A program made the translations under genes and the position numbers. This document shows, piece after piece, positions 3,393 to 64,000 of a stretch of 64,000 bases of DNA; within the stretch, counting starts at the first letter, position 1; the number at the start of each line of letters is the position of its first letter. Below the pieces are notes generated by a model that made no database searches, was not told the origin of the DNA, and saw nothing but the letters and a program-made list of their open reading frames with translations. This DNA comes from Anaeroplasmataceae bacterium (GTDB lineage: Bacteria; Bacillota_I; Bacilli_A; Acholeplasmatales; JAEDCM01): assembly GCA_016294165.1 (NCBI GenBank), contig JAEDCM010000004.1, positions 5,914 to 69,913 on the forward strand. The letters run 5' to 3'.

Positions 3393-3582
3393 ATAGTCTT
3401 TTACTTTCTCCCTTTTCTTCTAACTCTTTAAATGATTTTACACCCTTGGACTTTAGAAGTTCATTCATAAATTTCTCATCCTCATCTACCTCTTGTTGGT
3501 GCTCCTCACGAGTGGCTAAAAAGAAAATGGCAGATAATAGAATGATGGTACTAAAAATATAACCTAACACCGTCCAAAACAT
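3391..3582 (-). CDS. small single-pass membrane protein (hypothetical)
   Basis: Track ORF is 3391..3624. I prefer the internal ATG at 3582 (MFWTVLGYIFSTIILLSAIFFLA...) because GAGGTGA lies 5 nt upstream. One TM helix and an acidic/basic tail. Last gene of the repeat-protein/amidase operon. Confidence 0.4.
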   Translation of the reverse strand: MFWTVLGYIFSTIILLSAIFFLATREEHQQEVDEDEKFMNELLKSKGVKSFKELEEKGESKRL

Positions 3583-3613
3583 GAAAATCACCTCATATAA
3601 ATTATAGCATGTC

Positions 3614-4627
3614 TTAGATTTCAAATAAATAGGTTTTTAAATTTTTTGTAATTTCTATTTGGTATATTTCTTTCGGATTAATTACATTTCCATTCTCATG
3701 GAGATTTTTATCAATATAATTAATTTTTATATCATTTTTTAAGAAAAACAATTCTACATTAACCAAATCCTTAAAATAGTTCATTAGTTTGTAATTATTT
3801 ATGGTTAATGGGCAATTCTTCTTCGCAAAATCGCTATGGGTTTTAACACATGATAAATCAAGATTATATTTGTCAATCAAATGAGCCGTAAGCTTTGCGG
3901 TACGATGCATGTTATAGAAAAAGTCATCATCCTTGTTAACACACATTTCAATTCCAATCCCATTTTTATTACCGCCATCGTCCTTTAACCCATCACCAGC
4001 ATGATAGGCAACCTCATTATCGGGTATATGATTAATAACATAATGATTGTCAACGGTATAATGCCAGGAAGTTGCTTGCTTATTCTCATTATTTTTTAAA
4101 TATTTTGCATGATTAAGTGCTCCAGCATCAGTATTGCCTGTTTCATGAATAACGATATATTTTATCTCTCTTTTTATACAAGGACGTGCTTTTGTGTTCT
4201 TACTTAGATGATCATTTTGAATAATTAGATCCTCGTTAAGATACATAAAAGCACTTTTATATCCCTTGTATACGTATTTATCATAAATGTTTAAAGTATA
4301 TAGTAAATTATCATTTTTAATGCTTTTTAAATAATCTTCTAAATTGCTTTCAATAATATTTAAATTAATAATATCATTACCAACACTTATTATCGTATTT
4401 CCTTCCTTTATCGGAACTAAATAATTACTATAAATTTTAATATAACTTGCATCATAAACGATCTTAATATCTGGCAATTCATATTTTTGATTCTTCGTTA
4501 CGATTTTATTAAGTTCATTTTTATTAGACGCGGTAATGACTGTTGATGTTGGATTATTCTCTTTTATTTCTTCCTTCTTACAGCTGGTTAAAAATACCAA
4601 TAAAACGCATAATATAACTATTTTCAT
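3614..4627 (-). CDS. N-acetylmuramoyl-L-alanine amidase (Amidase_2/PGRP type) lipoprotein
   Basis: Signal peptide plus lipobox (MKIVILCVLLVFLTSC). C-terminal IKYIVIHETGNT...SWHYTVD...AYHAGDG...GIGIEMC matches Amidase_2 zinc-amidase blocks. ATG 4627 is preceded by GAGGTGAGGGAG; the track start at 4636 is GTG. Confidence 0.75.
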   Translation of the reverse strand: MKIVILCVLLVFLTSCKKEEIKENNPTSTVITASNKNELNKIVTKNQKYELPDIKIVYDASYIKIYSNYLVPIKEGNTIISVGNDIINLNIIESNLEDYLKSIKNDNLLYTLNIYDKYVYKGYKSAFMYLNEDLIIQNDHLSKNTKARPCIKREIKYIVIHETGNTDAGALNHAKYLKNNENKQATSWHYTVDNHYVINHIPDNEVAYHAGDGLKDDGGNKNGIGIEMCVNKDDDFFYNMHRTAKLTAHLIDKYNLDLSCVKTHSDFAKKNCPLTINNYKLMNYFKDLVNVELFFLKNDIKINYIDKNLHENGNVINPKEIYQIEITKNLKTYLFEI

Positions 4628-4666
4628 CTCCCTCACCTCATAAATATGATAAGGGATTTATTATCT

Positions 4667-6772
4667 TTAGTCTACCGGTAAATATTGGCTTTTAATCTCT
4701 AAAAGGATCTTTGAATTATGAACAACCATATCATTTCTATTTTCATATAGCTTTAATACATATTTCAAATATTCAATTCTTTTTGAATTCTCAATCCCAT
4801 CATCATTACACATCTCACTTAACAATAGTATTTGTTCATCAATGTAACTATTTATCTCATCATTCACATCCTCAGTTTGACTTTCAAGCTTAATAAACTC
4901 ACGTTCCATATCCAAAATTCTTTCATAATTTGAAACATGGATTTTTAAATCCTCATCTAGCATTTCATAAGCCATGCGTGCTCTGGCAATATCATCACCT
5001 TCATGAATTTCCACATCTCCAATTTCATCTATTAGATGCTCAACATTAATAATTAAATCTTCCATTTTTTCAATTTCTTGATGGGCTTTATTTAATTTAT
5101 CACTAACAAAATCAAAATCCTTAGCCTCATTCATTAAATCAATAATAACACTCTTATGGACATATTTAATTGGGTTTGGCAATAAAGAAATTTTTTCTTC
5201 TAATGTTTTAATTCCTCTTAGGCGCTTAATCTTGTTTTGTTCTTCTGTTAAAATATGGGCATGAGTTACATAATTTAAAACTAAGGAATCTAAGCTTTCA
5301 TATTCACTCTTATAGATTAATAGATCCTTTTCATCATCAAGACTACTAACCTTAAAGGCTTTAATTTCTTCATTAAGCTTATTAGCCTTTTTAACCATAA
5401 ACTCATAATAGTTCATATTATTCATATAATGGACCAATTCATTATAATTAAAGACATATCCTCTGGCTTCAGGGTCAAGACTATTATAAGCTTCATTAGC
5501 CTTTAAAACCAGTTTACGATCATAATTTATCTCAATACTATTAATTATTGAAGTAACATCTAATGCCTTATTCTTATTCGTGCTAACTGCTATCGCTTTA
5601 GTTAAAACATCATAATTAGTTACAAGCTTCTTTAAATCTGCATCAAGATTAATATATCTTGAATCAATCTCATTTAAATAATTTAAATGGGTTGCTTCAA
5701 TATGATATGGAATACTATTAATTTCATCAAAAATCGCTTTAGCAAGGCCTTTTCTTTTATCCTCTAATATTAAATCATCCAATATTTCTGATGTTTTTAC
5801 AAATAAATCTTTATTCTCCATATAGTCCTTAATTGATTCACTTAAGGATTCATAAATTCCTAAAACTAAATTATATTGTTCAAGTTTGTTTGCCAGTGAT
5901 ACATTATCATCAGTAACTAGTGAATGAAGCAATGATATTTGTTTATCCATATTGCTTGCGGATTTTTTATCAGCCTGTGCTTGTTTTAATTCTTTAATGA
6001 CATTATTTAATTCGATTAATTTAGCATAATTTGTAACATATACTTTTTCATTATTATTTAAATTTTCATACATTACTAGTGCTTCATTAATTCGCTCTTC
6101 ATCCTCAAGAGTAACTCGCGTTTTGATGGCATCAATTGCCTCAACAACCACCATTGCATTTTTAATGCTTTCAATAACTGATAATAAATTTAAGAGCTTC
6201 TCATAATTTGTAACATACTTTTTCGCATCATCAACTAAATTAATATAAGCTTCATTAGCTTCGTTAACCATTCCTTCTTCGCTTAAAGTGACATCTAACG
6301 GAAGCTCATCAATAAGCTTAATAACCTCAGCGGCTAATTCTTTATGCTTAGCAATTAATTCTAGTTTAGTAATTATTTGGTTAATCTCTTCTAAGCAATT
6401 AGCATTTTTAAGCATTATTTTTAGATTTTCATTTAAGCTGTTATATAAATTAAAAGTATATAACACACATTCCTTTTTCAAATCTAAATCTAGAATTTCA
6501 TCATTAACTGTTTTTAAACTAAGAACAATTTGATTATCAACGATATCTCGCAAATTACGCTCTTCTAAAGTAATTCCATCCTTAGCTAAAAACTTCTTTT
6601 CTAAATCTTCTAAATCCTTCTTGTTATAGACATGACTCTTTTGTTCATCATTTAATGACTCATACATTATCCTTGCATCATTAATCATATCCTTGTCCAC
6701 TTTTTTATTAGTCTTCAATTTGTTTATTAAAGCACATATATTATTGACCTGCTTTTCCTCTTTCTTTTTCAT
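4667..6772 (-). CDS. 701-aa helical-repeat protein of unknown function (about 10 copies of a Y-x2-L...V-x-N-Y-x2-L motif)
   Basis: Long ORF. The RBS GGGAG precedes the ATG at 6772; the track start is 6796. Recurring segments: RIMYESLNDEQKSHVYN, NEAYINLVDDAKKYVTNYEKL, LVMYENLNNNEKVYVTNYAKL, SRYINLDADLKKLVTNYDVL, NEAYNSLDPEARGYVFNYNEL, RMAYEMLDEDLKIHVSNYERI. No hydrophobic N-terminus or TM segment seen. Confidence 0.6.
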   Translation of the reverse strand: MKKKEEKQVNNICALINKLKTNKKVDKDMINDARIMYESLNDEQKSHVYNKKDLEDLEKKFLAKDGITLEERNLRDIVDNQIVLSLKTVNDEILDLDLKKECVLYTFNLYNSLNENLKIMLKNANCLEEINQIITKLELIAKHKELAAEVIKLIDELPLDVTLSEEGMVNEANEAYINLVDDAKKYVTNYEKLLNLLSVIESIKNAMVVVEAIDAIKTRVTLEDEERINEALVMYENLNNNEKVYVTNYAKLIELNNVIKELKQAQADKKSASNMDKQISLLHSLVTDDNVSLANKLEQYNLVLGIYESLSESIKDYMENKDLFVKTSEILDDLILEDKRKGLAKAIFDEINSIPYHIEATHLNYLNEIDSRYINLDADLKKLVTNYDVLTKAIAVSTNKNKALDVTSIINSIEINYDRKLVLKANEAYNSLDPEARGYVFNYNELVHYMNNMNYYEFMVKKANKLNEEIKAFKVSSLDDEKDLLIYKSEYESLDSLVLNYVTHAHILTEEQNKIKRLRGIKTLEEKISLLPNPIKYVHKSVIIDLMNEAKDFDFVSDKLNKAHQEIEKMEDLIINVEHLIDEIGDVEIHEGDDIARARMAYEMLDEDLKIHVSNYERILDMEREFIKLESQTEDVNDEINSYIDEQILLLSEMCNDDGIENSKRIEYLKYVLKLYENRNDMVVHNSKILLEIKSQYLPVD

Positions 6773-6937
6773 AAAAATTCTCCCTTCTAGAAACAATATA
6801 TTAAAGATTAATAAAACAAATGTGCAATATAATGCGATTTTTTAAAATATTTTTTTATTTTCCATTTTTTTAATGTCTAATAATTATTATAAAAATCAAA
6901 AAAAAGAGAAAACTATCAAATGAAGGAGGATTATAAA

Positions 6938-7172: not shown

Positions 7173-7889
7173 TTATTTTATTACCTTGTTAATTAAATCA
7201 GCTTTAAAACCCTTTTGATATAAGCTATTAAATATTTTACTTCTTAGCTCATATCCACTATACTTCTTTTCATATTTTTTTAAAAGCTTTTCATATTCCT
7301 TTTTGATAAGCGGTAATTCATCACACGCCACTTCCTCAAATTTTATATCAATATAGCCTTTGTTTTTTAAATAATGATAAATATATTCGTTTAAAGCCTT
7401 CGAACTTTTGTTTTTAGCCGTTTTTTTTAACTTTGCGACTAATTTATCAATATTTTCTTGTTCGTCGCCATATTCTAAATTATTTAAAATTTCTGTATCT
7501 ACACCTTTTAAGGATAATTCATTTTTAATCAACTTTATACCCTTTAAATTGCGTTTTTTTTGATAGTTTAAATACATATTAGAATATAACTCATCATCTA
7601 AATAACGTTGATTTAAAAGCATTTCAATGATTTTTACATGATAATTATTTTGATTTCTTAAGTAAATCTTAACCTCGTTAATGGTTCTTGGCTTATTTAA
7701 ATATTTTCTAGCCATATAATATCCATCCACAATAAATGAATATTCCTTTATTTCCTTTAATAATTCCTCATCAACTAAAGTAGAGTGTAATAAACGATAC
7801 TTAATAATCACATCCTCATAAACTAGCATATCTAGATTATCAGATGTTAAACGATACTTATTTTTTTCTTTTTTTACATCAATTCTCAT
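7173..7889 (-). CDS. recX: RecX-like regulatory protein
   Basis: 238 aa. Repeated three-helix pattern (ARKYLNKPRTINEVKIYL..., IIEMLLNQRYLDDELYSNMYL, IKNELSLKGVDTEIL, YLKNKGY) resembles Firmicute RecX/YfhG. The call is from memory of the family, not a search. Confidence 0.55.
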   Translation of the reverse strand: MRIDVKKEKNKYRLTSDNLDMLVYEDVIIKYRLLHSTLVDEELLKEIKEYSFIVDGYYMARKYLNKPRTINEVKIYLRNQNNYHVKIIEMLLNQRYLDDELYSNMYLNYQKKRNLKGIKLIKNELSLKGVDTEILNNLEYGDEQENIDKLVAKLKKTAKNKSSKALNEYIYHYLKNKGYIDIKFEEVACDELPLIKKEYEKLLKKYEKKYSGYELRSKIFNSLYQKGFKADLINKVIK

Positions 7890-9256
7890 TTTAATTCTAA
7901 TAATGCTTCTTGTAATAACGCATCATGAATATCCTTTTTTACCTCTACCTTATATAGTTCATATATTTCATCAGCCAAGGCTGCATCGATGTATGACTTT
8001 GAAAACTTATTATTTAAAACTAAAAGAGTATCTACATCAAAATATCCATCAGTTCTTACATCATATCCTAAACATTTAAGCATCAATTGAATTTGCTTAA
8101 CATCATCACTAACAACATCAAGTTCATACTTTTCATCAGTTAATATAACCTGTGCTAGATTCATATAAGAATTCTTTGAAACCACTTTTGTTGGGGCAAT
8201 TCCTTGATCCTTAACACTATAGTTATCAGGCCCATACCAATTACCCAAGGTAATATGTAGATAATAGTTTTTTAACGTTTGCATCTCGTAATCAACTTGA
8301 TATACACTTTTACCATAAGTTGTTTTTCCAATCAAATCATACCCACCATTATAATGCATTGCGACCGCAAAAACCTCTGCGGCTGATGCACTATTTTCAT
8401 TAATTAAAACTTTGATATCATAAGATTTTTTTACCGTATCCCTTAATGGATAATAATAAGTGTTTTTTAGTTCTTGATCACTTTCTTTAACATTCTCAAT
8501 TCTTAAATATGGACTATTTCCGGTCATAAAATTTGTAAGAATGTTAACGACAGAGCCCAAATATCCTCCTGGGTTATCTCTAACATCAATTATTAAACCA
8601 GTAATATTTTCATTCTCTAAAGCTTTTAATGCTTGATTGAATAGATTAGCGGTTTTTTCAGAAAATTCCACAATCTTAATATATCCAATACCATCAATAT
8701 TGCGGTATTTAATTGAAGGAGCATTAATAACACTTGAAACTAAAGTAACACTATATTCTCTACTTCCCCTTAAAAATGTCAAAGTATTCTCTTCACCTAA
8801 ATTAACCTTAATTAATAAACCTAAATCCGTAAAATTTTTGTTTTCTAATGATGTATCACCAATTTTAATTAAAACATCGTTAATTCTAACTCCTGATAAA
8901 TCGGCTGGAGAACCCTCAATTACATCTTTTACAACAAACTCTCCATCAATCAAAGAAAAACTAATTCCAATACCAATATATTCTTCTCCAATACTTTGGT
9001 TAGCGCTATATTCAAATAGAAATGTATACGGATCATTTAAAGAAGAAACCATTCCGTTAGCCGCTCCCATTAACAAATCATTTTCATCAACATCACTGTA
9101 ATGGTATTGATTTAACACCTCAGACAGTTCATCTAGAACATCATATCTACCATGTGATTCTAATCCCGAAAATGTTTTTCCAATAAAAAATCCAGTAAAG
9201 CTACATGTAATAACCATAATTAAAGTTAAAATACCTGTTAAGGCTTTTTTATTCAT
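7886..9256 (-). CDS. S41 family C-terminal processing peptidase (CtpA/CtpB-like) with PDZ and C-terminal PG-binding-like domain
   Basis: N-terminal TM anchor, PDZ (GISF...VIEGSPADLSGVRINDVLIKIG), S41 core (LIIDVRDNPGGYL, NENSASAAEVFA, GKTTYGKS), and C-terminal IQLMLKCLGYDVRTDGYFD. Confidence 0.8.
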   Translation of the reverse strand: MNKKALTGILTLIMVITCSFTGFFIGKTFSGLESHGRYDVLDELSEVLNQYHYSDVDENDLLMGAANGMVSSLNDPYTFLFEYSANQSIGEEYIGIGISFSLIDGEFVVKDVIEGSPADLSGVRINDVLIKIGDTSLENKNFTDLGLLIKVNLGEENTLTFLRGSREYSVTLVSSVINAPSIKYRNIDGIGYIKIVEFSEKTANLFNQALKALENENITGLIIDVRDNPGGYLGSVVNILTNFMTGNSPYLRIENVKESDQELKNTYYYPLRDTVKKSYDIKVLINENSASAAEVFAVAMHYNGGYDLIGKTTYGKSVYQVDYEMQTLKNYYLHITLGNWYGPDNYSVKDQGIAPTKVVSKNSYMNLAQVILTDEKYELDVVSDDVKQIQLMLKCLGYDVRTDGYFDVDTLLVLNNKFSKSYIDAALADEIYELYKVEVKKDIHDALLQEALLELK

Positions 9257-25486: not shown

Positions 25487-25702
25487 AAAAAGTCCTTAGA
25501 AAAACTCTAAGGACGTTATTAACGCGGTACCACCTTAGTTCTAGAAATTAATTCTAGCCCTCAATCCTTTTAACGCAAGGCTACGAGATTCCATTTCTGG
25601 TCTAGCTCCATGGGAGTAATTAATAAGTCCGTTTACCTAACTTTCACCACCTTAGGCTCGCTAAAAAAGGTTAAATATTAATCATGTCCATTTCATCGCT
25701 AT
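25487..25702 (-). promoter_or_regulatory. T-box riboswitch leader of thrS
   Basis: Minus strand has stem I elements (AGCGAUGA..., AGCGAG, distal GGUGGUGAAAG), the T-box sequence AACUAAGGUGGUACCGCG (25523-25540), and the terminator GUCCUUAGAG-UUUUU-CUAAGGAC plus U-run (25487-25514). Candidate Thr specifier codons (ACG/ACU) lie in ...UAAACGGACUUAUU... I could not resolve which one is used. Confidence 0.85.
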
Positions 25703-25729
25703 TTATATAATATCACTTAGGAAAATAAA

Positions 25730-48774: not shown

Positions 48775-50085
48775 TTAACTACTATGATGAATCCTTTTAA
48801 AATAATACATCATTTTTTCAGCCTCAGATATCATATTCTTAACACTATCTGTTTTGGCTTTATAAACCGATCCAAACGAGCAAGATATACGATTAAACTT
48901 AATTGATGAATGTATTTTTTTATTAATTGACTCAAATACTTCATTCTCAACGTTTTTGGCAATCACTACAAATTCATCACCACCGATACGATAAATATTG
49001 CAGCCATCGCAATCAATAGCTCTCAAAATTTCAGAAAAATCAATTAGTAATTTATCACCTGCATCATGTCCATATTGATCATTGGTTTCCTTTAAATCAT
49101 CAAGATCAAAATAAATTACACCAATTTTTTCTTGTGCCTCATTATAAACCTTTTCTAAATCGTTTATATATTTGTTTTTATTATATAAATTAGTTAATAA
49201 ATCATTATTCCCTAATGCGTATAATCCTTGATTATATAAAAATGAATTAATAATAAAAAAGCATGTTTTGTATAATATTTTATATAGACGATCACCATAA
49301 TCTGATTTTATATTTCTAACTACTAAAACATATTCGACATTATCAAACTCCCAAAACATTGTAAAAAAATCATTTACATCTTCCTCTTTCATGTACCTTT
49401 GTGCAATTGGGAAATCATCTAATTCACTAGCAAACAAATGAATAAACATATTGTCCTTATAAATTCTATTATATTCATAATCACCAACGATAACTGATCT
49501 TATGATTTTATCAAAAGGTAATTTTCTAATGTTTTTTTCTGAAAAAACATAATTAAATGCCTCTTTATTATCGCAGTATTTAATTAATCTTACTCCATCA
49601 GCTCTTAATAAATCTCTAACATCCTTTAATAACTTATTACACTGTTTCTCAATAGAAATATTGAAATCTATCGAAGAAATAGCGATAAGTATTTTTTCAT
49701 ATGCCTCGTGCTCACGTTTTGTCATTTCAGACTCATTCATGATGCTATCGATATTTAAAAATGTGTTTATTGCACATTTTACTCCATCAATCATCACCGT
49801 ATATTTTTTACCACGGTAATACTTTCCATCGATAATCTTATTAGTAACCTTATATAAATCATGATTTAAATTTTTACCAAAATCATCTAAAAAAAGCTTT
49901 GCCTTACACTGACTACAAACACATAATTTATTATCGAATAATTCCTTGCATTTTTTACCAATGTAATCATTTCCTAATACTTTTCGGGCTTCTTTATTCA
50001 TATAAATAAGATTTCCCGTTTCGATTTCATGAATTGTAACGATTTCCTGAGCATCTTCTAAAACAACAAATTCATTATGTTCCAT
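48775..50085 (-). CDS. diguanylate cyclase (GGDEF) with N-terminal PAS-like, Cys-rich sensor region
   Basis: The C-terminus has GVIYFDLDDLKETNDQYGHDAGD and RIGGDEF. The N-terminus has IVTIHEIETGNLIYMNKEARKVLG followed by C46-x8-C55-x-C57-x2-C60. Confidence 0.8.
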   Translation of the reverse strand: MEHNEFVVLEDAQEIVTIHEIETGNLIYMNKEARKVLGNDYIGKKCKELFDNKLCVCSQCKAKLFLDDFGKNLNHDLYKVTNKIIDGKYYRGKKYTVMIDGVKCAINTFLNIDSIMNESEMTKREHEAYEKILIAISSIDFNISIEKQCNKLLKDVRDLLRADGVRLIKYCDNKEAFNYVFSEKNIRKLPFDKIIRSVIVGDYEYNRIYKDNMFIHLFASELDDFPIAQRYMKEEDVNDFFTMFWEFDNVEYVLVVRNIKSDYGDRLYKILYKTCFFIINSFLYNQGLYALGNNDLLTNLYNKNKYINDLEKVYNEAQEKIGVIYFDLDDLKETNDQYGHDAGDKLLIDFSEILRAIDCDGCNIYRIGGDEFVVIAKNVENEVFESINKKIHSSIKFNRISCSFGSVYKAKTDSVKNMISEAEKMMYYFKRIHHSS

Positions 50086-50165: not shown

Positions 50166-51107
50166 TTATTCAGGCTCATTAATTTTTATAAAGCCCATTT
50201 CTTTCATCTTATTATTAAGGTTGATAATCATTTTATTTGTTTGAAAATATCTTACTAGAAAACCAATAGAATAAGGAAATATTAAAATCTCTGATAAGAT
50301 AGCGCAAATGATCAATAAATAAATATTATAGTTCATTATAGGATTCTTTCCCTTAATAATCTTTCCTTCAATTTTCCCATCAACGACATTTCCAGTATAA
50401 TAATAATCTGCATAAAATTTACTTGAAGTAAGTTTGATATTAATTTCTTTATTCTCGATAGAGTCTATATAATATGTATGATGCTCTCGATCAATTAAGC
50501 TATATTTATGTGCAATCAAAATAAACCAACCAAGTAAAATGAAAATAACACCAACAAAAGATCCAACAAGGCCATTTATAACATTTAGATTATCATCTGA
50601 TGCAAAGGATGTTAGTGCGATTTCTGTTAGAACAATTGCCGTGCATGCTGAACAAAAATTGATTATTTTAATATTACGATAATAGTGTCCTTTGCCATAG
50701 GCCTTAACTATTCCAGTAATTGCAACTCCCATTTCTACAAATGACACAAAAGCTATAATAATTCCAATAAATTCACCATATTCAAAAATAGGAATATCTA
50801 AAAAAATGTACCTAATCATATAAATTATATAACATAAGCCAGAAGCCATAAGTAATAAAGATATTATCCTTGTACGCTTAAAAAAATTCTTTTTTTGAGG
50901 ATTAATAATTCCTTGAAAGCACTCATATTTAGAAAGCATAATCAAAAGATTGATTATCCCTGAAATCAAAAAGAAAATAGTGCTAAACAATGAAAGTAAA
51001 ATCTTACCTACTCCAAGTATAAAGTTAAAAACAATTGATATTCTAGTATTGAAAACTGTTTTTTCCTTAAAATCTAAAAAACGATATTTATTGATAAGCT
51101 CTTTCAT
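50166..51107 (-). CDS. polytopic membrane protein of unknown function
   Basis: About 313 aa with 6-7 TM helices. No family recognised. Confidence 0.4.
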   Translation of the reverse strand: MKELINKYRFLDFKEKTVFNTRISIVFNFILGVGKILLSLFSTIFFLISGIINLLIMLSKYECFQGIINPQKKNFFKRTRIISLLLMASGLCYIIYMIRYIFLDIPIFEYGEFIGIIIAFVSFVEMGVAITGIVKAYGKGHYYRNIKIINFCSACTAIVLTEIALTSFASDDNLNVINGLVGSFVGVIFILLGWFILIAHKYSLIDREHHTYYIDSIENKEINIKLTSSKFYADYYYTGNVVDGKIEGKIIKGKNPIMNYNIYLLIICAILSEILIFPYSIGFLVRYFQTNKMIINLNNKMKEMGFIKINEPE

Positions 51108-51269: not shown

Positions 51270-52823
51270 TTATAGCATCGGTATAAATATTCTAACAAAA
51301 ATTTTAAATAATCGCATAAATACACCATTTTTCACCTTTATATCATTCATATAAATAGAATTGCTATATGTGTCTATAAAATCTTTTTTCATCACTCTTA
51401 TTTCTGTACTTTTATATATTAATACTCCATTTTCAAAATGATGAACTAAACTTCGATAATCTAAATTGATTGTCCCAATCATCGCTAATTCATCATCACA
51501 AATAAATAACTTTGAATGAATGAAACCAGGCTCATATTCATAAATCTTTACTCCCTTTTTAATTAACTCCTGATAATTTGACTTTGTAATTTCAAAAACG
51601 ATTTTCTTATCAGGAATATGGGGGACAATTATTCTTACATCAACACCTCTTTTACATGCATTAGCTATAGCATTTTGCATTTCACTATCCACAATTAAAT
51701 ATGGTGTTGTAATATAAACGTAGTCCTTAGCTTGATTAAGCATATTCATTATAACAATCTTACTGACGTTCTCATTATATATAGGTCTTGGCCCATCGCC
51801 AAATGGCATTATAAATTCATCAGATACTGTCTCATTTTTTTTATATATTTTAGAGATTTCAATATCTATTTTCTTTTTATTTAAGTAAAAATCGATCAGG
51901 AATAATCTAGAAAATTCATTTGTAGCATTTCCTTCAATTCGGATACCAGTATCCTTCCAATACCCAAATCTCTTTTTATGATTAATATATTCGTCCGCTA
52001 TATTGATTCCACCTGTATAGGAAATCATACCATCGATTACTAATATTTTTCGGTGATTTCGATTGTTAAACTCACTATTTGCACTTCCTTTTAATCTTGA
52101 AAATGTTGTCGCGTCGATTCCCATTTTTCTTAAACTTTTAAAATAATCTCCTGGTAAAGTTGACATACATCCAATATCATCCCAAATTACCTTAACCATA
52201 ATACTTTTCGCTTTTTCTTTTAAAACTTCTAAAATAGAATCCCAAAAAACTCCATTTTCCACAATAAAATATTCTAGTAGAATATACTCATTAGCATTCT
52301 TTAAATCATTTAATAAATCCGCAAAATAATCTTCTCCACATGAATAATACTTAATATTAGAATCACTATATAAATGGGTATCGGATATTTGTTGTAGATG
52401 GTAAAATTGTGATTTAATGAGCTTATCATCAATCTCTGAAAAAGAATTTGAATCATCAATTTTGAAGCTACTTTTGATTTTATTTAATCTTTTAATATAT
52501 TTTTTTGATAGTTTTCTATAATAAAATAGAAAATATAACATATAACCAATGATTGGTAATAAAATAACAATCACGATCCATGGAACCTTATAATCCGGAT
52601 TATCATTTGAACAAACAATAGCTGACAACACTCCAACCTGAGTCAAAACTGATAAAACCCAAAAATATGGAATATATATACATAAAAGTATTACTATAGC
52701 AATTATTAATAAGGTTTCAATTATTGTGAGTAATATGGCAATTATATATCTTATAGGTATGTAATTAATCTCCTTAATTACCGGTTTTCCCAATTTATCA
52801 TATGATTTAACTTTTCTTTTCAT
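51270..52823 (-). CDS. cls: cardiolipin synthase
   Basis: Two N-terminal TM helices and two HKD motifs (HRKILVIDG and HSKLFICDD). ATG 52823 is preceded by GAGG; the track start at 52844 is TTG. Confidence 0.85.
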   Translation of the reverse strand: MKRKVKSYDKLGKPVIKEINYIPIRYIIAILLTIIETLLIIAIVILLCIYIPYFWVLSVLTQVGVLSAIVCSNDNPDYKVPWIVIVILLPIIGYMLYFLFYYRKLSKKYIKRLNKIKSSFKIDDSNSFSEIDDKLIKSQFYHLQQISDTHLYSDSNIKYYSCGEDYFADLLNDLKNANEYILLEYFIVENGVFWDSILEVLKEKAKSIMVKVIWDDIGCMSTLPGDYFKSLRKMGIDATTFSRLKGSANSEFNNRNHRKILVIDGMISYTGGINIADEYINHKKRFGYWKDTGIRIEGNATNEFSRLFLIDFYLNKKKIDIEISKIYKKNETVSDEFIMPFGDGPRPIYNENVSKIVIMNMLNQAKDYVYITTPYLIVDSEMQNAIANACKRGVDVRIIVPHIPDKKIVFEITKSNYQELIKKGVKIYEYEPGFIHSKLFICDDELAMIGTINLDYRSLVHHFENGVLIYKSTEIRVMKKDFIDTYSNSIYMNDIKVKNGVFMRLFKIFVRIFIPML

Positions 52824-52840: not shown

Positions 52841-53161
52841 TCAATTAGAGCTTTTGTTTTCACATGCTGCATCATATCGCTTGTTAGCACATTCTATTCT
52901 TTTTTGGGCTAATGCAATTTGTTCTTCTTGTTTATTTTTTGTTATTTCTCTTCTTTTAGATGGACTTAAATGCGCCTCATCCCAAATTCTCTTAGAATCT
53001 TCTTTTGCCCTTTTAAATGTATTTTTTCCTCTATTTTCTTCAAATGTTGCTTTTGATTCTGCTTTTACTGCTTTGAAATTTGCTTTGTCAACTTCATGTT
53101 GCATTTTGGCACTTTCCTTCATATCCATAAATGGTTTTTTGATGATTTCTCTAATTGCCAT
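52841..53161 (-). CDS. 106-aa Lys/Glu-rich soluble protein (hypothetical)
   Basis: MAIREIIKKPFMDMKESAKMQHEVDKANFKAVKAESKATFEENRGK... AGGAGAG lies 6 nt upstream of the ATG at 53161. It sits between the 113-aa membrane protein gene and cls. The antisense track ORF 52854..53183(+) is rejected. Confidence 0.45.
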   Translation of the reverse strand: MAIREIIKKPFMDMKESAKMQHEVDKANFKAVKAESKATFEENRGKNTFKRAKEDSKRIWDEAHLSPSKRREITKNKQEEQIALAQKRIECANKRYDAACENKSSN

Positions 53162-53171
53162 TTTTTCTCTC

Positions 53172-53513
53172 CTATTCATTTAATAATTTATTACTTAAAT
53201 TTAAAATATTTTCACAATACTTTTCCTTTCTTGATGATAAGATTCTTTTATAAATTGGATATGTTAATAAGCATAATCCAATTCCAATTACTCCTACACC
53301 TATTCCTAACCACATATAACCTTTTAGAATTTCTTCCATCGCAACACACATTCCAAACCCTAGTATTAAAGTGCTTATAGAACCAAAGACATATCCAAAG
53401 ATAATCGCTGGTCTTTTAACCATTTTATCTAATTCTTTTAATCGTTCTAAATCTGTTTTTTCTTGGCTACCGTATTGTTTGATAAGTTTATTGGCATATT
53501 GTTTATTTGTCAT
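53172..53513 (-). CDS. 113-aa two-TM protein, paralog of 53643..54020
   Basis: AAGGAGG RBS. LERLKELDKMVKRPAIIFGYVFGSISTLILGFGM...YPIYKRILSSRKEKYCENILNLSNKLLNE aligns with the 125-aa protein (IERLRELDGKVKNTPIITSLSLGIIGVLIFGLGL...YPVYLKIYDKQKNKYQEEILSLSEKLLNE). Confidence 0.5.
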   Translation of the reverse strand: MTNKQYANKLIKQYGSQEKTDLERLKELDKMVKRPAIIFGYVFGSISTLILGFGMCVAMEEILKGYMWLGIGVGVIGIGLCLLTYPIYKRILSSRKEKYCENILNLSNKLLNE

Positions 53514-53553
53514 TTTATATTCCTCCTTAATTTACACTCATATTTTATTAAAT

Positions 53554-53598
53554 GAATGTTAAAATTATATTTGGATTTTGTAAGGATATTGTAAGAGT
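53554..53598 (-). promoter_or_regulatory. candidate response-regulator box / promoter block, copy 1 (CTTACAA-N4-CTTACAA)
   Basis: Minus strand ACTCTTACAATATCCTTACAAAA (53598..53576) is 22/23 identical to 55811..55789. Similarity continues about 20 nt toward the gene. The box lies 63-85 nt upstream of the ATG at 53513. Confidence 0.45.
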
Positions 53599-53611
53599 TA
53601 TTATTTTTTTA

Positions 53612-53644
53612 GGCGTAAAAATAAAAGACCTCATTTTAGGTCTT
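53612..53644 (-). terminator. intrinsic terminator after the RR-HK-125aa operon
   Basis: Minus strand: AAGACCT-AAAATG-AGGTCTT followed by TTATTTTT. It overlaps the stop codon. Confidence 0.65.
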
Positions 53645-54020
53645 ATTCATCTTCTTCATTTAAAAGTTTTTCGCTTAATGAAAGTATTTCTTCCTGATAT
53701 TTATTCTTTTGTTTATCATAAATTTTTAGATAAACTGGATAAGAAACCCCCACCGGTATACATCCAATAGCCATTACAATAATCCCATAAATAATTATGT
53801 CAAATACTAATATCATTGATAATCCTAATCCAAATATCAAAACACCTATTATTCCTAAGGATAAGCTTGTGATAATTGGAGTATTTTTTACCTTTCCATC
53901 TAATTCTCTTAGCCTTTCAATTGATGACTTAATTTTAGGCAAATAACTTCTCCTAATGCTTTCAATTTCTTCTCTTTCACTTTCATTTAGAGCTTTATAT
54001 TTATAATTAAATGTGCTCAT
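53643..54020 (-). CDS. 125-aa two-TM protein, paralog of 53172..53513
   Basis: See the paralog alignment above. The start shares 1 nt with the kinase stop (TAATG), so it is translationally coupled. Confidence 0.5.
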   Translation of the reverse strand: MSTFNYKYKALNESEREEIESIRRSYLPKIKSSIERLRELDGKVKNTPIITSLSLGIIGVLIFGLGLSMILVFDIIIYGIIVMAIGCIPVGVSYPVYLKIYDKQKNKYQEEILSLSEKLLNEEDE

Positions 54021-55066
54021 TAAAATCCTCTTTTCTCTTTATAAACTGTAACCATAAATGTCGAACCAACACCAATCTCACTTGAAACAGATATTTCACC
54101 ACCAATTATATCAATTACTCTTTTAACAAGTGCCAATCCTAATCCATTACCCTCATTGGCATGCGATGTATCCCCTTGATAGAATTTTTCAAAGATTCTT
54201 TCACCTGTTTCTTTATTCATTCCACATCCAGAATCTTTTACCTTGATAATAATTTTATCTTCATAATCTTTTAATGAAATAAAAATCTTTCCATACTCAT
54301 CGGTAAACTTAACAGCATTAGAAATTAGATTATTCCAAATCATATCCAAATATGAAATCTCAATTTTCATCACTACTTCATCAATGTCACATTCTAACTC
54401 AATATTCTTTTTTCCAATAATATCCTCATAACTTAAAATTGCTTCAGCTAATAAATTAGAAATATTAGCCTCCGTTTTTGTTTCACTGATTATTTGATTA
54501 TCTAGTTTATTTAATTTTAAAATATTAGTCACTAAAGATGTTAATCTTTTAGCAGCTGCTAAGAGATTATCTCCATATTCTTTTATTTCTTCTTTACTGA
54601 TATTTTCATCTGAAAGAAGTTGAGCATAATTATTAATAATCGTAATCGGCGTTTTTATTTCATGACTAACATTAGCAATAAAATCACTCTTTAAAACTTC
54701 ACTTTTATCCAGTTCTTTAGCCATTTTATTAATATTACTTATTATTTGATCAAATGCATCATACTGTCCAAATCTATGCAATTTATTGATTGTTACTTTA
54801 AAATTTCCTGATGTAATTTCATCAGTTGCATTTAATATTATCTTTACCGGCTTATCGATAGTTATTTTTCTTCTTATATAATCAATTAATGCGTATAAAA
54901 ATGTAATAAAAAAAACATTAATTAAAAGAAAAATTGCGGTATATCCTATTTTATTTTCAAAATTACTCTTTAGATTATCATATAACAAAACTGAACATGT
55001 TGTGCTGAAGGCTACACAAAAAAATAACAATAAATATCCGAAAACAAAAGTTTTAATTTTTTTCAT
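54020..55066 (-). CDS. sensor histidine kinase, intramembrane-sensing type
   Basis: Two TM helices separated by only about 14 residues, a HAMP-like linker, the H-box NVSHEIKTPIT, and ATPase boxes ISNAVKF, DSGCGM, GNGLGLA. Confidence 0.85.
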   Translation of the reverse strand: MKKIKTFVFGYLLLFFCVAFSTTCSVLLYDNLKSNFENKIGYTAIFLLINVFFITFLYALIDYIRRKITIDKPVKIILNATDEITSGNFKVTINKLHRFGQYDAFDQIISNINKMAKELDKSEVLKSDFIANVSHEIKTPITIINNYAQLLSDENISKEEIKEYGDNLLAAAKRLTSLVTNILKLNKLDNQIISETKTEANISNLLAEAILSYEDIIGKKNIELECDIDEVVMKIEISYLDMIWNNLISNAVKFTDEYGKIFISLKDYEDKIIIKVKDSGCGMNKETGERIFEKFYQGDTSHANEGNGLGLALVKRVIDIIGGEISVSSEIGVGSTFMVTVYKEKRGF

Positions 55067-55734
55067 TTTAAAATCACCTTATAACCTAAGCCATGGACAG
55101 TAACTATTTCAAATTCTTCAACCTTGCTTACCTTTTTTCTCAATTCTGACACACAAACATCAACCGCTCTAGAGGTTGCGGAGCTATCATATCCCCAAAA
55201 TTCATCCATTAGCTTTCCTCTTGAAAATGTTTTTTTAGGATAAGATAATAATTTAAACAAAATTTGGAATTCTTTAACGGTTAAATTCATTTCATCATCA
55301 TTATATAAAGCTGAATGCTCCTCTTCATTGATGATAAAGTTACCGATCTTTATTTCCTTTTTTTCTTCAATCTTTAATCTTTTAATAATTGCATTAATAC
55401 GCATTTTTAATTCTGATAATTCAAAAGGCTTAACAATGTAATCATCTATTCCAATATCATATCCCTTTTCCTTTGATTTTATATCATCCTTAGCTGTCAT
55501 AAAAATGATTGGAATATGCTTATCATTAATCCTAATAGCATCTGCTAATTCGAATCCATCCATATTAGGCATCATAATATCGGTTATAATCAAATCAAAT
55601 TTTTCATCCTCATATCTTTCTATAGCATCTTCTCCATTAAAAGAACTTATAACATCAAATCCATTATTGGTAAGATATTTTCTTGTGCTATCATTAAGAT
55701 TATGATCATCCTCAACTAATAGAATTTTAATCAT
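55063..55734 (-). CDS. OmpR/PhoB-family response regulator
   Basis: Receiver domain (ILLVEDD, DLIITDIMMPNMDG, TAKD) plus a winged helix (LTVKEFQILFKLL, VDVCVSELRKK, VHGLGYK). ATG 55734 is 10 nt after GGAG; the track start at 55743 is GTG. Confidence 0.9.
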   Translation of the reverse strand: MIKILLVEDDHNLNDSTRKYLTNNGFDVISSFNGEDAIERYEDEKFDLIITDIMMPNMDGFELADAIRINDKHIPIIFMTAKDDIKSKEKGYDIGIDDYIVKPFELSELKMRINAIIKRLKIEEKKEIKIGNFIINEEEHSALYNDDEMNLTVKEFQILFKLLSYPKKTFSRGKLMDEFWGYDSSATSRAVDVCVSELRKKVSKVEEFEIVTVHGLGYKVILK

Positions 55735-55766
55735 TTTTACCACGCTCCATAATCATTATAATTAAA

Positions 55767-55811
55767 AATTGTTAGAATAACATTAGAATTTTGTAAGGAT
55801 TTTGTAAGAGT
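55767..55811 (-). promoter_or_regulatory. candidate response-regulator box / promoter block, copy 2 (CTTACAA-N4-CTTACAA)
   Basis: Minus strand ACTCTTACAAAATCCTTACAAAA (55811..55789), 55-77 nt upstream of the regulator ATG. TATAAT lies further downstream. Confidence 0.45.
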
Positions 55812-55863
55812 AATTTTTATATTAAAAACACCAAATCGTTAGACATTTAACAAATTGGTGTTT

Positions 55864-57165
55864 TTATTCAGAATCTTTGCTATAAATATTATTTTTAAAT
55901 TCATCCCAATTATCCAAAAGGGCTGATAAAACAATTGGATCAAATTGTTTACCACTTTCCTCTTTTAAAATGGCAAAAGTTTTTTCAAAACTATAGGCTT
56001 CTTTATATTGCCTTTTGGAAAGCAAAGCATCTAAAACATCCGCTACAGCCATTATTCTAGCACAAAGCGGAATATGATTGCCACTTAAACCCATCGGGTA
56101 TCCTTTTCCATCATATCTTTCGTGATGATATAAGCAAACCTCTTTTGTTATTCCTAAATAATTAACATCTGTTAGTGTGTCATCAAAGTTGCTCAGTAAC
56201 TCAAATCCATACTCAGGATGTTTTTTCATTTCCTCATATTCCTCTATAGTCAGTTTCCCATTTTTGCATAGGATTGCATCTGGAATATGAATTTTACCAA
56301 TATCATGTAGCGGAGCCGCCTCAACAACTAAAAGAGCATATTCAGCATTCAGCTCATCCACATAAAGCTTGTTATTAATCATTTTATCAACTAAAAATTC
56401 GACATATTTAGCCGTATTTTTTATATGGTCACCGGTAATTTGATCGCGACTTTCAATTACCGAAGCTAGTGATACGATGATGTGTTGTTGATTTTCAACA
56501 ATTTCTTTTGACAATTTTAAATTTTTATTTTGCGTTTCAATTAATTTTTCTGTTCTTTTATCAATAACCGAATTCAAATGAATAACCATAGGGATTACAC
56601 CCATGATGACCAAGGATTTTGGAATTGCAAAATATAAAATATTCCTAAACCAATCAGGGTCTTTTATAATATCACTATAACTAAATTTTTTAATAAATTC
56701 TGATGTTTTATCTTTAGTATATACAAGCATATTAGCATCACATAATCCAAAATAATATCCAAAAACAACACTGAAGATGATTGATAGCGTACTAAGTATA
56801 TATGTATAAGTTATAACCCTTTTACTTCTATATTGAGCTGAAAAAATAATAGGAAAAATAAAAGATATCATGGTGTGATATGTTAAAAATGAATTAATAA
56901 ATGCATATATTAAAATCGTTAGAAACAATAAAATATATTTAACATACTCCTTATTAAAATCTAAAACAAATTGTATTGCCAAGGATATAAGAGCTACTAT
57001 TGTAACGCTTAAAACTGCGTATAAGAAGATTTTTGAATCAATGATAAATACGTCTAAAAGGTTTAAAATCCATGTTATATATAGTATCATAGTTGTGACT
57101 AAAATACACTTAATCAAAAATCTATTACTATTTGATTCTGAGTACTCAACATTAATATTATCCAT
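55864..57165 (-). CDS. HD-GYP domain c-di-GMP phosphodiesterase with N-terminal polytopic membrane domain
   Basis: About 7 TM helices, a coiled linker, then HDIGK...HHERYDGKGYP. Confidence 0.8.
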   Translation of the reverse strand: MDNINVEYSESNSNRFLIKCILVTTMILYITWILNLLDVFIIDSKIFLYAVLSVTIVALISLAIQFVLDFNKEYVKYILLFLTILIYAFINSFLTYHTMISFIFPIIFSAQYRSKRVITYTYILSTLSIIFSVVFGYYFGLCDANMLVYTKDKTSEFIKKFSYSDIIKDPDWFRNILYFAIPKSLVIMGVIPMVIHLNSVIDKRTEKLIETQNKNLKLSKEIVENQQHIIVSLASVIESRDQITGDHIKNTAKYVEFLVDKMINNKLYVDELNAEYALLVVEAAPLHDIGKIHIPDAILCKNGKLTIEEYEEMKKHPEYGFELLSNFDDTLTDVNYLGITKEVCLYHHERYDGKGYPMGLSGNHIPLCARIMAVADVLDALLSKRQYKEAYSFEKTFAILKEESGKQFDPIVLSALLDNWDEFKNNIYSKDSE

Positions 57166-57290: not shown

Positions 57291-58058
57291 TTATTCTTTA
57301 TTATCTATTTTTCTAGCAATAATCATAAACCTATGCTCAGTTGATTCAATATACCCCTTTTCATTCAACATTTTTTCTAAAACTTCAAATTTTTCAATAC
57401 TATCTTTAACACTAAAATTAATGAATTCCCACTCTATTATTTTAGCAAAATAAGCAATGGCGCCTAAGTCCATAAATTTAATTTTTGGAAAATACTCATC
57501 CTTATAAATTATTTCAAAACCTTCATTTTCCAATCTTTCAACTGTTTTATCTAGTGTCATTTTGGGAAATTGAATTTGATGATTTTCATCAAAGAATGTC
57601 GCAAGATCGTTATTATTATACGCCCCAACCTGTTGAGTAATAAATAAACCACCTTCTTTTAGTACTCGCTTAACCTCTGATTCTAGAAATGATTCATGAT
57701 GATTTAAAACAATATCATAATAATTATCTTTCACATTAATCAATATATCATCCTGTTTAATCGGATATACTTTAATTCCCATTGGAGCTAATTTTTCAAG
57801 ACAAAGTTTAATGTTTGGCTCATATGCTTCAGTGACTGATGTTTTATCATAAGGATGATTAAAACTTAACAATAATTCTCCACCACCAGTACCCATATCT
57901 AGGATATTATCACTGGCCTTTAAATACTTTTTTACAAAATAATTATAATTCCATGGTAATTCTTCATTAATCCATCTACCTTTTAAATATGAAAAATCCC
58001 ATCCTTTAAAAGCATGAGCTTCTTCATCTAATAAATATTTAATTGTTTCTTCCTTCAT
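57291..58058 (-). CDS. class I SAM-dependent methyltransferase
   Basis: Motif I ILDMGTGGGE, and post-I/II blocks (DIVLNHH, GGLFITQQ). Confidence 0.7.
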   Translation of the reverse strand: MKEETIKYLLDEEAHAFKGWDFSYLKGRWINEELPWNYNYFVKKYLKASDNILDMGTGGGELLLSFNHPYDKTSVTEAYEPNIKLCLEKLAPMGIKVYPIKQDDILINVKDNYYDIVLNHHESFLESEVKRVLKEGGLFITQQVGAYNNNDLATFFDENHQIQFPKMTLDKTVERLENEGFEIIYKDEYFPKIKFMDLGAIAYFAKIIEWEFINFSVKDSIEKFEVLEKMLNEKGYIESTEHRFMIIARKIDNKE

Positions 58059-58103: not shown

Positions 58104-58631
58104 TTATAAAAATTTTTTAATAATTTCATCTTTAATCATTTGTAAAACCATTGTTTCTCGTTTGATCATTATCTCATTAAATAAGTTATTACTTTTATAA
58201 TTTAAATTCGTTTTTATTGCTTCATCGATATCAACAATCTTTAGAACAAATTTTACATTTGCTTCATATAAATCTAGATTTTGTTTAACGATTTTATCCT
58301 CAACTTCACATGTAAAATAGAAGTTTTCTTGTTCAAAAATTGTATGTGGTGTTACTAGACTCTTTTGACGACGCATTACACTTCCAAATTCAAATATTGA
58401 GTTTGGCTTAACAATCATTCCTACCTCTTCTTTAACTTCTCTAATAAGTGCCTCTTTTTTATCTTCTTTAGGATCTATACCTCCGCCAGGAAACTTGTAA
58501 TAATTTTCCTTTTCACTATAAACGAGAGCAATCTTACCATTTAAAAAAATAATTCCCCTTGCGGATGGTCTACTAAAAACCATATCACCAGTATCATAAT
58601 CCTTTAAATCAATTTCAAATAACTGTCGCAT
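58104..58631 (-). CDS. NUDIX hydrolase
   Basis: Nudix box GGGIDPKEDKKEALIREVKEEVG. Confidence 0.75.
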   Translation of the reverse strand: MRQLFEIDLKDYDTGDMVFSRPSARGIIFLNGKIALVYSEKENYYKFPGGGIDPKEDKKEALIREVKEEVGMIVKPNSIFEFGSVMRRQKSLVTPHTIFEQENFYFTCEVEDKIVKQNLDLYEANVKFVLKIVDIDEAIKTNLNYKSNNLFNEIMIKRETMVLQMIKDEIIKKFL

Positions 58632-63805: not shown

Positions 63806-63962
63806 ATAAAAAATGTCCCCTAGGACATGCAGTAAAAAGAATATATATGAAGTAAAAATAGATATATACTTCTCACATTATTCCCTACGCTAGCATTACC
63901 TAGATCAGGTCATGGGTCGATAACTAAATATCCTCTCAGCCATTTGGCTCCCCTCAATATGA
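63806..63962 (-). promoter_or_regulatory. TPP (THI-box) riboswitch with terminator, leader of thiM-thiE-thiD(-thiW-thiC)
   Basis: Minus strand: GGGGAGC-CAAAUGG-CUGAGA...ACCC-AUGA-CCUGAUC-UA-GGUAAUGC-UA-GCGUAGGGA (63953 down to 63882). This is followed by the terminator AUGUCC-UAGG-GGACAU plus UUUUUU (63828..63806), then the AAGGAGA RBS. Confidence 0.85.
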
Positions 63963-64000
63963 CAACATTATTATATATCTAATTTTTCAAAGTTTCAACA

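Follow-up and report, generated by a model that had tools for sequence, protein, structure and literature searches.

Response regulators of the OmpR/PhoB family bind head-to-tail direct repeats with a spacing of roughly one helical turn, close to or overlapping the −35 region, and they often regulate their own genes. In the classical activated layout of this family, a good −10 hexamer without a −35 hexamer is preceded by strong upstream units and weak proximal units, and the proximal of the cooperatively bound tandem dimers contacts RNA polymerase. Pho-regulon promoters of Bacillus subtilis carry four TT(A/T/C)ACA-like hexamers with an 11-bp period on the coding strand, at approximately −60 to −20, in place of the −35 element; two dimers of the OmpR/PhoB-family regulator PhoP bind there and activate transcription. 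This element was reportedly described as the PhoP 'core binding region' by Liu and Hulett in 1998 and by Eder et al. in 1999. Here, we compare a locus of an Anaeroplasmataceae bacterium with these and other described systems. It lies in a 64,000-nt stretch (assembly GCA_016294165.1, contig JAEDCM010000004.1, positions 5,914 to 69,913), hereafter the window, whose own numbering is used throughout. On the minus strand, the genes follow in the order HD-GYP, response regulator (RR), histidine kinase (HK), p125, a terminator and a box, p113, p106, cardiolipin synthase (cls), and x313. A box of the form CTTACAA-N4-CTTACAA stands upstream of both RR-HK-p125 and p113-p106-cls. Judging from sequence evidence, we consider it fairly probable that the adjacent regulator binds arrays built on this box and activates p113-p106-cls and, in this species, its own operon.

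Among described systems, SaeRS of Staphylococcus aureus is the closest in architecture. It consists of an intramembrane-sensing kinase of ~350 aa with a 9-residue loop and an OmpR-family regulator; its operator, GTTAAN6GTTAA, is a direct repeat with an 11-bp period, the auxiliary membrane proteins SaeP and SaeQ are encoded in the operon, and a constitutive promoter (P3) for the kinase and regulator genes is accompanied by an autoinduced promoter (P1) that carries the binding sites (PMC5083920). Moreover, the small transmembrane (TM) protein ScrA activates SaeS through TM contacts (PMC12239555), and cardiolipin is needed for full SaeS kinase activity (bioRxiv 10.1101/2023.02.01.526740). Intramembrane-sensing kinases, in the definition of Mascher 2006 as it is cited in PMC5083920, have fewer than 400 aa and two N-terminal TM helices joined by a loop of less than 25 aa. 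The operator of WalR (YycF) is TGTWAH-N5-TGTWAH (PMC9210968). In Clostridioides difficile, HexRK and DraRS control the glycolipid genes hexSDF, and lipids are remodelled upon exposure to envelope-targeting antibiotics (PMC10128005; PMC10601699).

Based on the minus-strand sequence of the window, copy 1 of the box (ACTCTTACAATATCCTTACAAAA, 53598..53576) lies 63–85 nt upstream of the ATG of p113 (53513), and copy 2 (ACTCTTACAAAATCCTTACAAAA, 55811..55789) lies 55–77 nt upstream of the ATG of the regulator gene (55734). The two 23-mers are identical at 22 of 23 positions, with the single T/A difference in the spacer, and both this identity and the distances agree with an earlier note on this DNA. 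The motif CTTACAA-N4-CTTACAA has only these two exact matches on both strands of the 64 kb and is contained in 0 of 100 dinucleotide-preserving shuffles. Similarly, T[TA]ACA-N6-T[TA]ACA is found in the window again only at the same two places. The hexamer TTACAA alone is not enriched in the window (90 seen versus 85.8 expected); therefore, the signal is the phased pair and not the word. A search for CTTACAA-N4-CTTACAA with two mismatches loses its power (1.21 matches expected), and both window matches are exact. The similarity continues toward the genes beyond the 23-mer, as the earlier note had stated, but we counted 15 of 21 identical positions where it gave 14. In the repeat search, 53542–53611 and 55755–55824 were paired with 77% identity over 70 ungapped nt, the longest two-copy pair among those listed (the others span 42–56 nt and are 70–77% identical). 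The exact 23-mer is kept at every promoter covered by the same-species metagenomic contigs (n = 5), and it occurs in 0 of 215 other loci.

Both boxes are preceded by predicted intrinsic terminators, so each heads its own transcription unit. The terminator of the RR-HK-p125 operon (53625..53644, minus strand) is found directly upstream of copy 1, where the earlier note had placed it. The terminator of the upstream HD-GYP gene (55818..55866, minus strand) comprises a hairpin at 55866–55823 with −19 kcal/mol and z = −6.8 and a U-run, and it isolates the regulator promoter. Separately, a relaxed box match, AAACAATGGTTTTACA, lies at 58141–58156 on the minus strand, within the 3′ end of a NUDIX gene and 83–98 nt upstream of a 255-aa gene (57291–58058); this match is probably due to chance.

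To compare the promoters across species, we collected related loci. A kinase search restricted to one genome per species yielded 80 loci with kinases 44–53% identical, from gut and rumen Clostridia metagenome-assembled genomes (MAGs), and homologues of p113 (63–65% identical) and x313 (~50%) led to the window's own low-GC lineage. Approximately 15 further loci were found through these p113 and x313 homologues, and about 100 related loci were compared. Boxes lie at fixed distances upstream of regulator and p113 homologues in Clostridia and in Erysipelotrichaceae and Bacilli MAGs. Among the 80 loci, the strict box T[TA]ACA-N6-T[TA]ACA, counted on the gene strand within 200 nt upstream of a gene, precedes 25 of 85 regulator genes and 16 of 42 p113 genes, as well as 1 of 11 cls genes; it precedes none of 75 p125 genes and none of 16 p106 genes. 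Across these 816 kb, the background density is 0.0077 sites per 200 nt. They contain 63 strict sites in total, 41 of which lie at regulator or p113 promoters in gene orientation, and the strand bias is 41 sites on the gene strand versus 1 on the opposite strand. With the relaxed box, 63 of 85 regulator genes are preceded by a site.

An independent site-to-gene classification of 62 strict sites assigned 24 to the regulator, 19 to p113, 1 to cls (L040), 1 to p106-cls (L092), and 3 to an ABC ATPase. In the window's own lineage (87.7 kb), eight of nine strict sites are at p113, p106, or p106-cls promoters, and a box at the regulator promoter also occurs in Clostridia lineages. The earlier note had named conservation at orthologous loci as a check, and period-11 T[TA]ACA pairs are indeed present upstream of both regulator and p113 homologues. 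This conservation at about 100 related loci supports its proposal that the box is the operator of the adjacent OmpR-type regulator, which would thus be the probable binder. Its proposed regulon, the regulator's own operon plus the cls operon, is supported in that both carry the box. The most conserved target, however, is p113, a p125 paralogue that is often followed by p106 and cls, and the autoregulation would normally not extend to the lineage.

The structure of the operator was resolved by aligning six promoters from four genomes (the window regulator and p113 promoters, L086, L090, and two from L092). The alignment is gap-free from the box to the −10, and its invariant columns are both half-sites, TAA at offset 33, and TA.AAT at offset 47. 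In addition, we anchored each box-bearing promoter on its first unit and located −10-like hexamers. Of 139 candidates for the −10, 91 are in the same phase (offset 3 mod 11), with offsets of 25, 47, or 69, and the distance from the start of the last unit to the −10 is invariably 14 nt. These offsets therefore indicate arrays of two, four, or six units, as would be expected of tandem dimers. In the window promoters, the units are TTACA (0), TTACA (11), a degenerate unit (22), and TAACA (33), followed by the −10 (47). Thus, direct repeats about 11 bp apart overlap the −35 region, which is the layout of OmpR/PhoB operators, and the array has the same half-site, phase, and position as the PhoP core region. 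The 11-bp direct repeat described in the earlier note was confirmed, but the operator as a whole is the four-unit array and not the 23-mer alone.

In the regulator promoter (all positions minus strand), the distal dimer site in copy 2 (55789..55811) contains units 1 and 2 (TTACA at 55807–55803 and 55796–55792), with equivalents upstream of regulator genes in relatives. Its proximal half (55770..55785) contains the degenerate unit 3 (TAATG, 55785–55781) and unit 4 (TAACA, 55774–55770), which is in phase at offset 33, and overlaps the −35 and spacer; the phase analysis places the predicted −10, TATAAT, at 55755..55760, at offset 47 from unit 1. Similarly, in the p113-p106-cls promoter, the distal site in copy 1 (53576..53598; TTACA at 53594–53590 and 53583–53579) is conserved upstream of p113 homologues, the phase analysis gives a proximal half at 53557..53572 with a degenerate unit 3 (AAATA) and unit 4 (TAACA, 53561–53557), and the predicted −10, TAAAAT, is at 53542..53547, again at offset 47. 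The position of unit 4 is also occupied in L092, L214, L219, and Lachnospiraceae promoters. The window promoters, like those of the lineage, combine a good −10 with a poor −35 region (ATGTTA / ATATAA), and no −35 hexamer can be recognised in the window arrays. If the −10 is set at −12 to −7, the 23-mer is most likely a strong distal dimer site at about −59 to −43, and the 21 additional similar nt are most likely a weak proximal dimer site at about −37 to −22 that overlaps the poor −35.

Two other promoter assignments were considered and rejected. A −10 at offset 33 (TAACAA/TAACAT), drawn by analogy with TTAACA-N17-TATAAT of the Christensenellales-like group, conflicts with the phase analysis, which puts the −10 of this lineage at 47 and makes offset 33 unit 4. 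A promoter of an extracytoplasmic-function (ECF) sigma factor does not fit either, as the −10 resembles TATAAT and a phased repeat stands upstream in place of AAC...CGT. Furthermore, a TGTAAA(A/T) sequence is conserved ~5–7 nt after the p113 −10, near the predicted start (window 53530–53536, L090, L092, L214, and L219). TGTAAA is the reverse complement of a TTTACA half-site, and its counterpart in Christensenellales-like promoters is GTACAAA.

From these features, we infer the following circuit. The short-loop kinase would phosphorylate the adjacent OmpR/PhoB-family regulator, and the phosphorylated regulator would bind head-to-tail as two tandem dimers at about −59 to −22. The strong distal site would recruit occupancy of the weak proximal site over the −35, and transcription would then be activated. 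Copy 1 would thereby drive p113-p106-cls, that is, an inducible p125 paralogue, a small charged protein, and cardiolipin synthase, and the duplicated copy 2 would drive RR-HK-p125, resulting in positive autoregulation. The short-loop kinase, the co-encoded membrane proteins, and the targets (cls, ABC-2 transporters, and small membrane proteins) suggest that the signal may be membrane or envelope stress.

Several observations weigh against this circuit. The coordinates from −59 to −22 rest on predicted −10 hexamers. A sigma-70 consensus scan calls neither promoter (55 matches versus 47.6 expected), a silence that is expected of an activator-dependent promoter and lends no independent support. 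In the window's closest lineage, the regulator operon is box-less, so autoregulation is not a conserved property. The half-site is generic, as TT(T/A)ACA is the B. subtilis PhoP hexamer and the reverse complement of WalR TGTWAH. Across 23 loci, no co-variation between the regulator box and the p113 box was found, with 14.5 of 23 positions identical within genomes and 14.3 between genomes (p = 0.35). Finally, among the matches listed for the exact 17-mer TTTACAAAACTTTWACA in metagenome contigs, 80 of 80 are unrelated to the module; they come mostly from environmental samples and have p113, x313, or cls downstream in 0 of 80 cases. Among the same listed matches, the 17-mer twice precedes unrelated kinase–regulator pairs (L097 and L110). 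Sequence alone therefore does not identify the regulator.

The generic half-site, the occurrence of the 17-mer in many unrelated organisms, including before those two pairs, and the missing co-variation within genomes would all suit boxes that are real but bound by another OmpR-family regulator, WalR- or PhoP-like and encoded elsewhere, with the adjacent regulator serving other targets. In particular, TT(T/A)ACA-N5-TT(T/A)ACA matches the B. subtilis PhoP boxes and is the reverse complement of TGTWAH-N5-TGTWAH. The WalR hexamer and its 11-bp period both match, and the reverse complement DTWACA covers TTTACA and TTAACA; however, the orientation of the box to its gene is opposite to the usual writing of the WalR motif. 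Moreover, the box travels with the module genes (regulator, p113, p106, and cls) through several gene orders in at least three lineages, the proteins it would control are specific to the module and seldom occur apart from this two-component system, and WalR or PhoP regulon genes (cell-wall hydrolases and phosphate uptake) are not among the downstream genes. We consider binding by a regulator encoded elsewhere unlikely. As a separate observation, multi-unit period-11 arrays of TTTACAAAAC-type units occur in unrelated organisms (L102, L111, L116/L118/L135/L143, L097, and L110; some with 64% GC), and these are probably operators of other OmpR-family regulators that share the half-site.

The adjacent regulator might also bind the boxes and mainly repress or act dually, with the duplicated box providing negative autoregulation. 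The proximal units fall inside the core promoter (about −37 to −22), and their occupation over the −35 and spacer would shut the promoters off. In addition, eight Christensenellales-like regulator promoters (L007, L010, L013, L015, L016, L022, L024, and L033) have two −10-like hexamers. Here, TATAAT at offset 33 lies 17 nt downstream of the TTAACA unit 2 and forms with it a near-consensus promoter that could fire without an activator; the second −10 is at 47, and the two may be tandem basal and inducible promoters. Nevertheless, the poor −35 (ATGTTA, ATATAA) with a good −10 is the signature of activator dependence, the strongest units are distal at −59 to −43, an activator position, and the same architecture activates in B. 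subtilis PhoP promoters. The arrangement of constitutive and inducible promoters also parallels sae P3/P1 (PMC5083920). A mainly repressive or dual action thus appears improbable, and activation by the adjacent regulator remains our preferred reading.

The box before the regulator operon sets the window apart from its lineage. The usual order there is [box] p113 (p106, cls), [box] p113, a terminator, and x313-RR-HK-p125. In relatives, the stop codon of x313 and the start of the regulator gene overlap, and the promoter before x313-RR-HK-p125 normally contains an extended −10 and no box. In the window, x313 is displaced to the far side of cls. Because the regulator promoter of the lineage is box-less, and because the window copies share 22 of 23 positions (77% over 70 nt) compared with ~14.5 of 23 within other genomes, copy 2 is best explained as a recent duplication of a p113-type promoter, which would have been set before RR-HK-p125 when x313 separated. 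The same excess of identity over functional boxes in other genomes, together with the p113/p125 paralogy, which shows that duplication occurs within the locus, could mean that the shared block is only a by-product of local duplication or gene conversion, or an AT-rich feature resembling an UP element, with no dedicated binder. However, the duplicated unit precedes non-homologous genes (regulator and p113), and the half-sites, the 11-bp phase, and the distance to the −10 are kept across lineages whose promoters have otherwise diverged. The 41-to-1 strand specificity and the arrays of two, four, and six units, which point to dimer binding, likewise oppose a passive block, which we regard as highly improbable.

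The regulator (223 aa, 55063..55734, minus strand) is the proposed box binder. It has a receiver domain (Response_reg, 5.9e-30) and a winged-helix domain (Trans_reg_C, 3.3e-20), both above gathering scores, which places it in the OmpR/PhoB family; its closest PDB relatives are MtrA, DrrD, PrrA, RegX3, and PhoP. The kinase (348 aa, 54020..55066, minus strand) contains HisKA and HATPase_c domains and two TM helices, with hydropathy peaks at residues 4–22 and 43–61 and a loop of at most ~20 residues. By its size and predicted topology, it is of the intramembrane-sensing type, as the earlier note had maintained. The regulator and kinase score well below all NCBIfam equivalog cutoffs (PhoB, PhoR, YycF, WalK, VanR, VanS, PnpS, and others) and are therefore not orthologues of a named system. 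For PhoPR, the PhoB models give 165–179 bits against cutoffs of 270–296 and PhoR gives 167 against 334; the window kinase has no PAS or extracytoplasmic domain, unlike PhoR, and the targets here are membrane proteins and cls, whereas those of PhoPR are phosphate-scavenging genes. For WalRK, the YycF model gives the regulator 145 bits (cutoff 340) and the WalK model gives the kinase 157 (cutoff 725), and the window kinase lacks the extracellular and PAS domains of WalK. Orthology to VanRS is likewise not indicated, with VanR models at 132–146 bits against cutoffs of 350–480 and VanS at 120 against 400, and the PnpS model gives the kinase 191 bits against a cutoff of 400.

The two-component operon ends with p125 (53643..54020, minus strand), a small membrane protein that is 38% identical to p113 (E = 2e-16). 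This paralogy is still visible in the DNA, where 53400–53447 and 53871–53918 are 71% identical. In the tightly packed p113-p106-cls operon, p113 (53172..53513, minus strand) is a 2-TM hairpin protein that, from the promoters of its homologues, is the most conserved box-driven target, and p106 (52841..53161, minus strand) is a small charged soluble protein whose gene has its own box in L214 and L092. The third gene, cls (51270..52823, minus strand), scores 319 bits with TIGR04265 (cutoff 290) and has PLDc_2 (8.3e-40, two stretches), PLDc (1.8e-15), and PLDc_N domains as well as two N-terminal TM helices. Its predicted product is therefore a bacterial cardiolipin synthase of the PLD superfamily. 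At 50% identity, the p113/p125 family comprises 1,836 representatives, 1,009 of them with E <= 1e-10, and no Pfam model covers it.

The displaced module member, x313 (50166..51107, minus strand), is a polytopic membrane protein of 313 aa. Its gene in the window has its own extended −10 promoter (TGGTATAAT) and no box. In its confident AlphaFold model (pLDDT 83), a six-helix bundle is combined with a small beta domain and a TM helix at the C-terminus. An assignment as a CDF transporter was rejected as a generic six-helix match, since the best Foldseek hit has E = 0.016 and TM scores are at most 0.42. No Pfam, NCBIfam, PADLOC, or significant PDB sequence or profile match was found for p113, p125, p106, or x313. 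The x313 family has at least 312 members, whose sole names are 'hypothetical protein', in Erysipelotrichaceae and Bacilli MAGs.

Near the kinase in the 80 loci, we found the regulator in 79, p125 in 71, X in 69, p113 in 40, p106 in 16, and cls in 9. X is a polytopic protein of ~300 aa encoded between the kinase and p125. In profile–profile comparison, the membrane domain of x313 matches that of X (hhalign 96.2%, E = 2.4e-9, 186 columns), and by this match the two are one family. The presence of X and p125 in 69 and 71 of the 80 loci, along with the overlap of x313 and the regulator gene in relatives, is circumstantial evidence that the signal may be perceived in the membrane or via accessory membrane proteins. 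From this match and the gene counts, the conserved core therefore comprises four predicted components, namely, the regulator, the short-loop kinase, an X/x313-family protein, and a p125-family protein. Of the 40 loci with p113, 21 have this gene upstream of the regulator, 17 have it downstream, and 2 have it on both sides. Furthermore, cls recurs near the two-component system in several arrangements, in some cases with a box of its own (L040, L092, and L219). A literature search found no paper describing the module.

Compared with SaeRS, the likeness is architectural only. The constitutive x313-RR-HK-p125 and box-driven p113 of the relatives mirror the P3/P1 layout of sae, but the half-site is TTACA here and GTTAA for SaeR, and the targets are membrane and lipid genes instead of virulence factors. 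In the Pfam, NCBIfam, and PADLOC searches, no homology of p113, p125, p106, or x313 to SaeP or SaeQ was detected. Since SaeS needs cardiolipin for full activity, a feedback loop between kinase and cls is conceivable here, and p113 could possibly feed back on the kinase and modulate it, much as SaePQ, ScrA, or MgrB do. If so, the kinase would sense the bilayer state that its own regulon sets. We tentatively extend this to the view, doubtful as it still is, that the module is a widespread four-component membrane-state sensor of gut Firmicutes, forming a closed lipid-homeostasis loop with p113 and cls as outputs.

HexRK and DraRS follow the same logic, a two-component system driving a membrane-lipid change, with aminoglycolipid there and cardiolipin here, and no comparable operator is described in the papers on them (PMC10128005; PMC10601699). 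The C. difficile regulator RR_1586 was rejected as a counterpart for its different motif, DRTTAAG. We also considered the envelope-stress systems of Firmicutes. In LiaFSR-LiaIH and BceRS-type modules, an intramembrane-sensing kinase depends on accessory membrane proteins, and induction acts mainly on small membrane proteins (LiaI) or ABC transporters. These systems differ in that LiaR is a NarL-type regulator with an inverted-repeat operator, and in that BceS-type kinases have no HAMP-like linker and work with BceAB-type permeases. The likeness of the present module to these systems extends, in some relatives, to ABC transporter genes. A box precedes a BcrA-like ABC ATPase gene (~300 aa) directly after p125 in L016 (8353), L028 (8202), and L068 (4275), and in the L218 cluster, cls and x313 are separated by two ABC transporters, each an ATPase with an ABC-2 permease (3472–6915). 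These genes hint that one part of the regulon may serve detoxification of the antimicrobial-peptide or bacitracin type. Domain and profile searches detected no PspA/LiaH or LiaF homologue at the locus.

The proposed switch is an ordinary, textbook OmpR-family mechanism and involves no new principle. Its value lies in annotation: a large two-component module of gut Firmicutes that had none gains an operator and a regulon that can be tested. Signal or regulon are assigned for almost no two-component system in gut Clostridia and Erysipelotrichales. The predicted regulon is compact (p113, p106, and cls, with ABC transporters and a small repeat protein in some species), and the accessory membrane proteins are conserved, none of them with a Pfam family. 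If the circuit holds, an intramembrane-sensing kinase would be linked directly to cardiolipin synthesis, which would bear on the tolerance of commensals to bile, antimicrobial peptides, and daptomycin-like drugs, and the box-driven promoter would offer a ready inducible promoter for organisms with few genetic tools.

Additional features were observed at individual loci. A 72–101-aa protein with three VxGGYKKIE repeats precedes p113 in 24 loci (e.g., L066 4523–4741 and L008 4489–4794), and in Lachnospiraceae the promoter of this gene has four perfect in-phase units (TAACA, AAACA, AAACA, and AAACA) and a −10 at offset 47. In an Oscillospiraceae (Faecousia) MAG, a family-4 glycosyltransferase of 382 aa is encoded directly upstream of p113-RR-HK-X-p125 (L012 3554–4702); family-4 glycosyltransferases are the class used in membrane glycolipid synthesis. 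In several assemblies of a common gut species, the regulator gene is broken into two to three open reading frames (L086–L088, ~7309–7980), and in L089 (~7195–7290) the regulator and most of the kinase are deleted with the box-p113 promoter kept. These variants may be natural losses of function or else assembly errors. The p113 homologue of that species (P0014) is present in 297 collection blocks. Downstream in L086–L089 (e.g., L086 9601–12348), a second, unrelated pair of a 225–230-aa regulator and a 430-aa kinase lies directly upstream of another PLD-type cls, without a box; thus, cls is tied to two-component systems in more than one way.

The locus in the window is flanked by genes for a membrane-anchored HD-GYP phosphodiesterase (55864–57165, minus strand) and a GGDEF diguanylate cyclase (48775–50085, minus strand), a flanking that is kept in the same-species contig L081 and not in relatives. 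No Rfam family was found in the 5′ regions of the regulator and p113 operons; elsewhere in the window, Rfam models identify a T-box leader (25506–25705, minus strand), a TPP riboswitch (63864–63964, minus strand), and a tRNA (3109–3181, plus strand). Finally, some p113 homologues (P0021 and P0045) are named 'dihydropteridine reductase' in NCBI/nr, a name that is implausible for a 2-TM hairpin protein of 113–121 aa and is probably a propagated misannotation.

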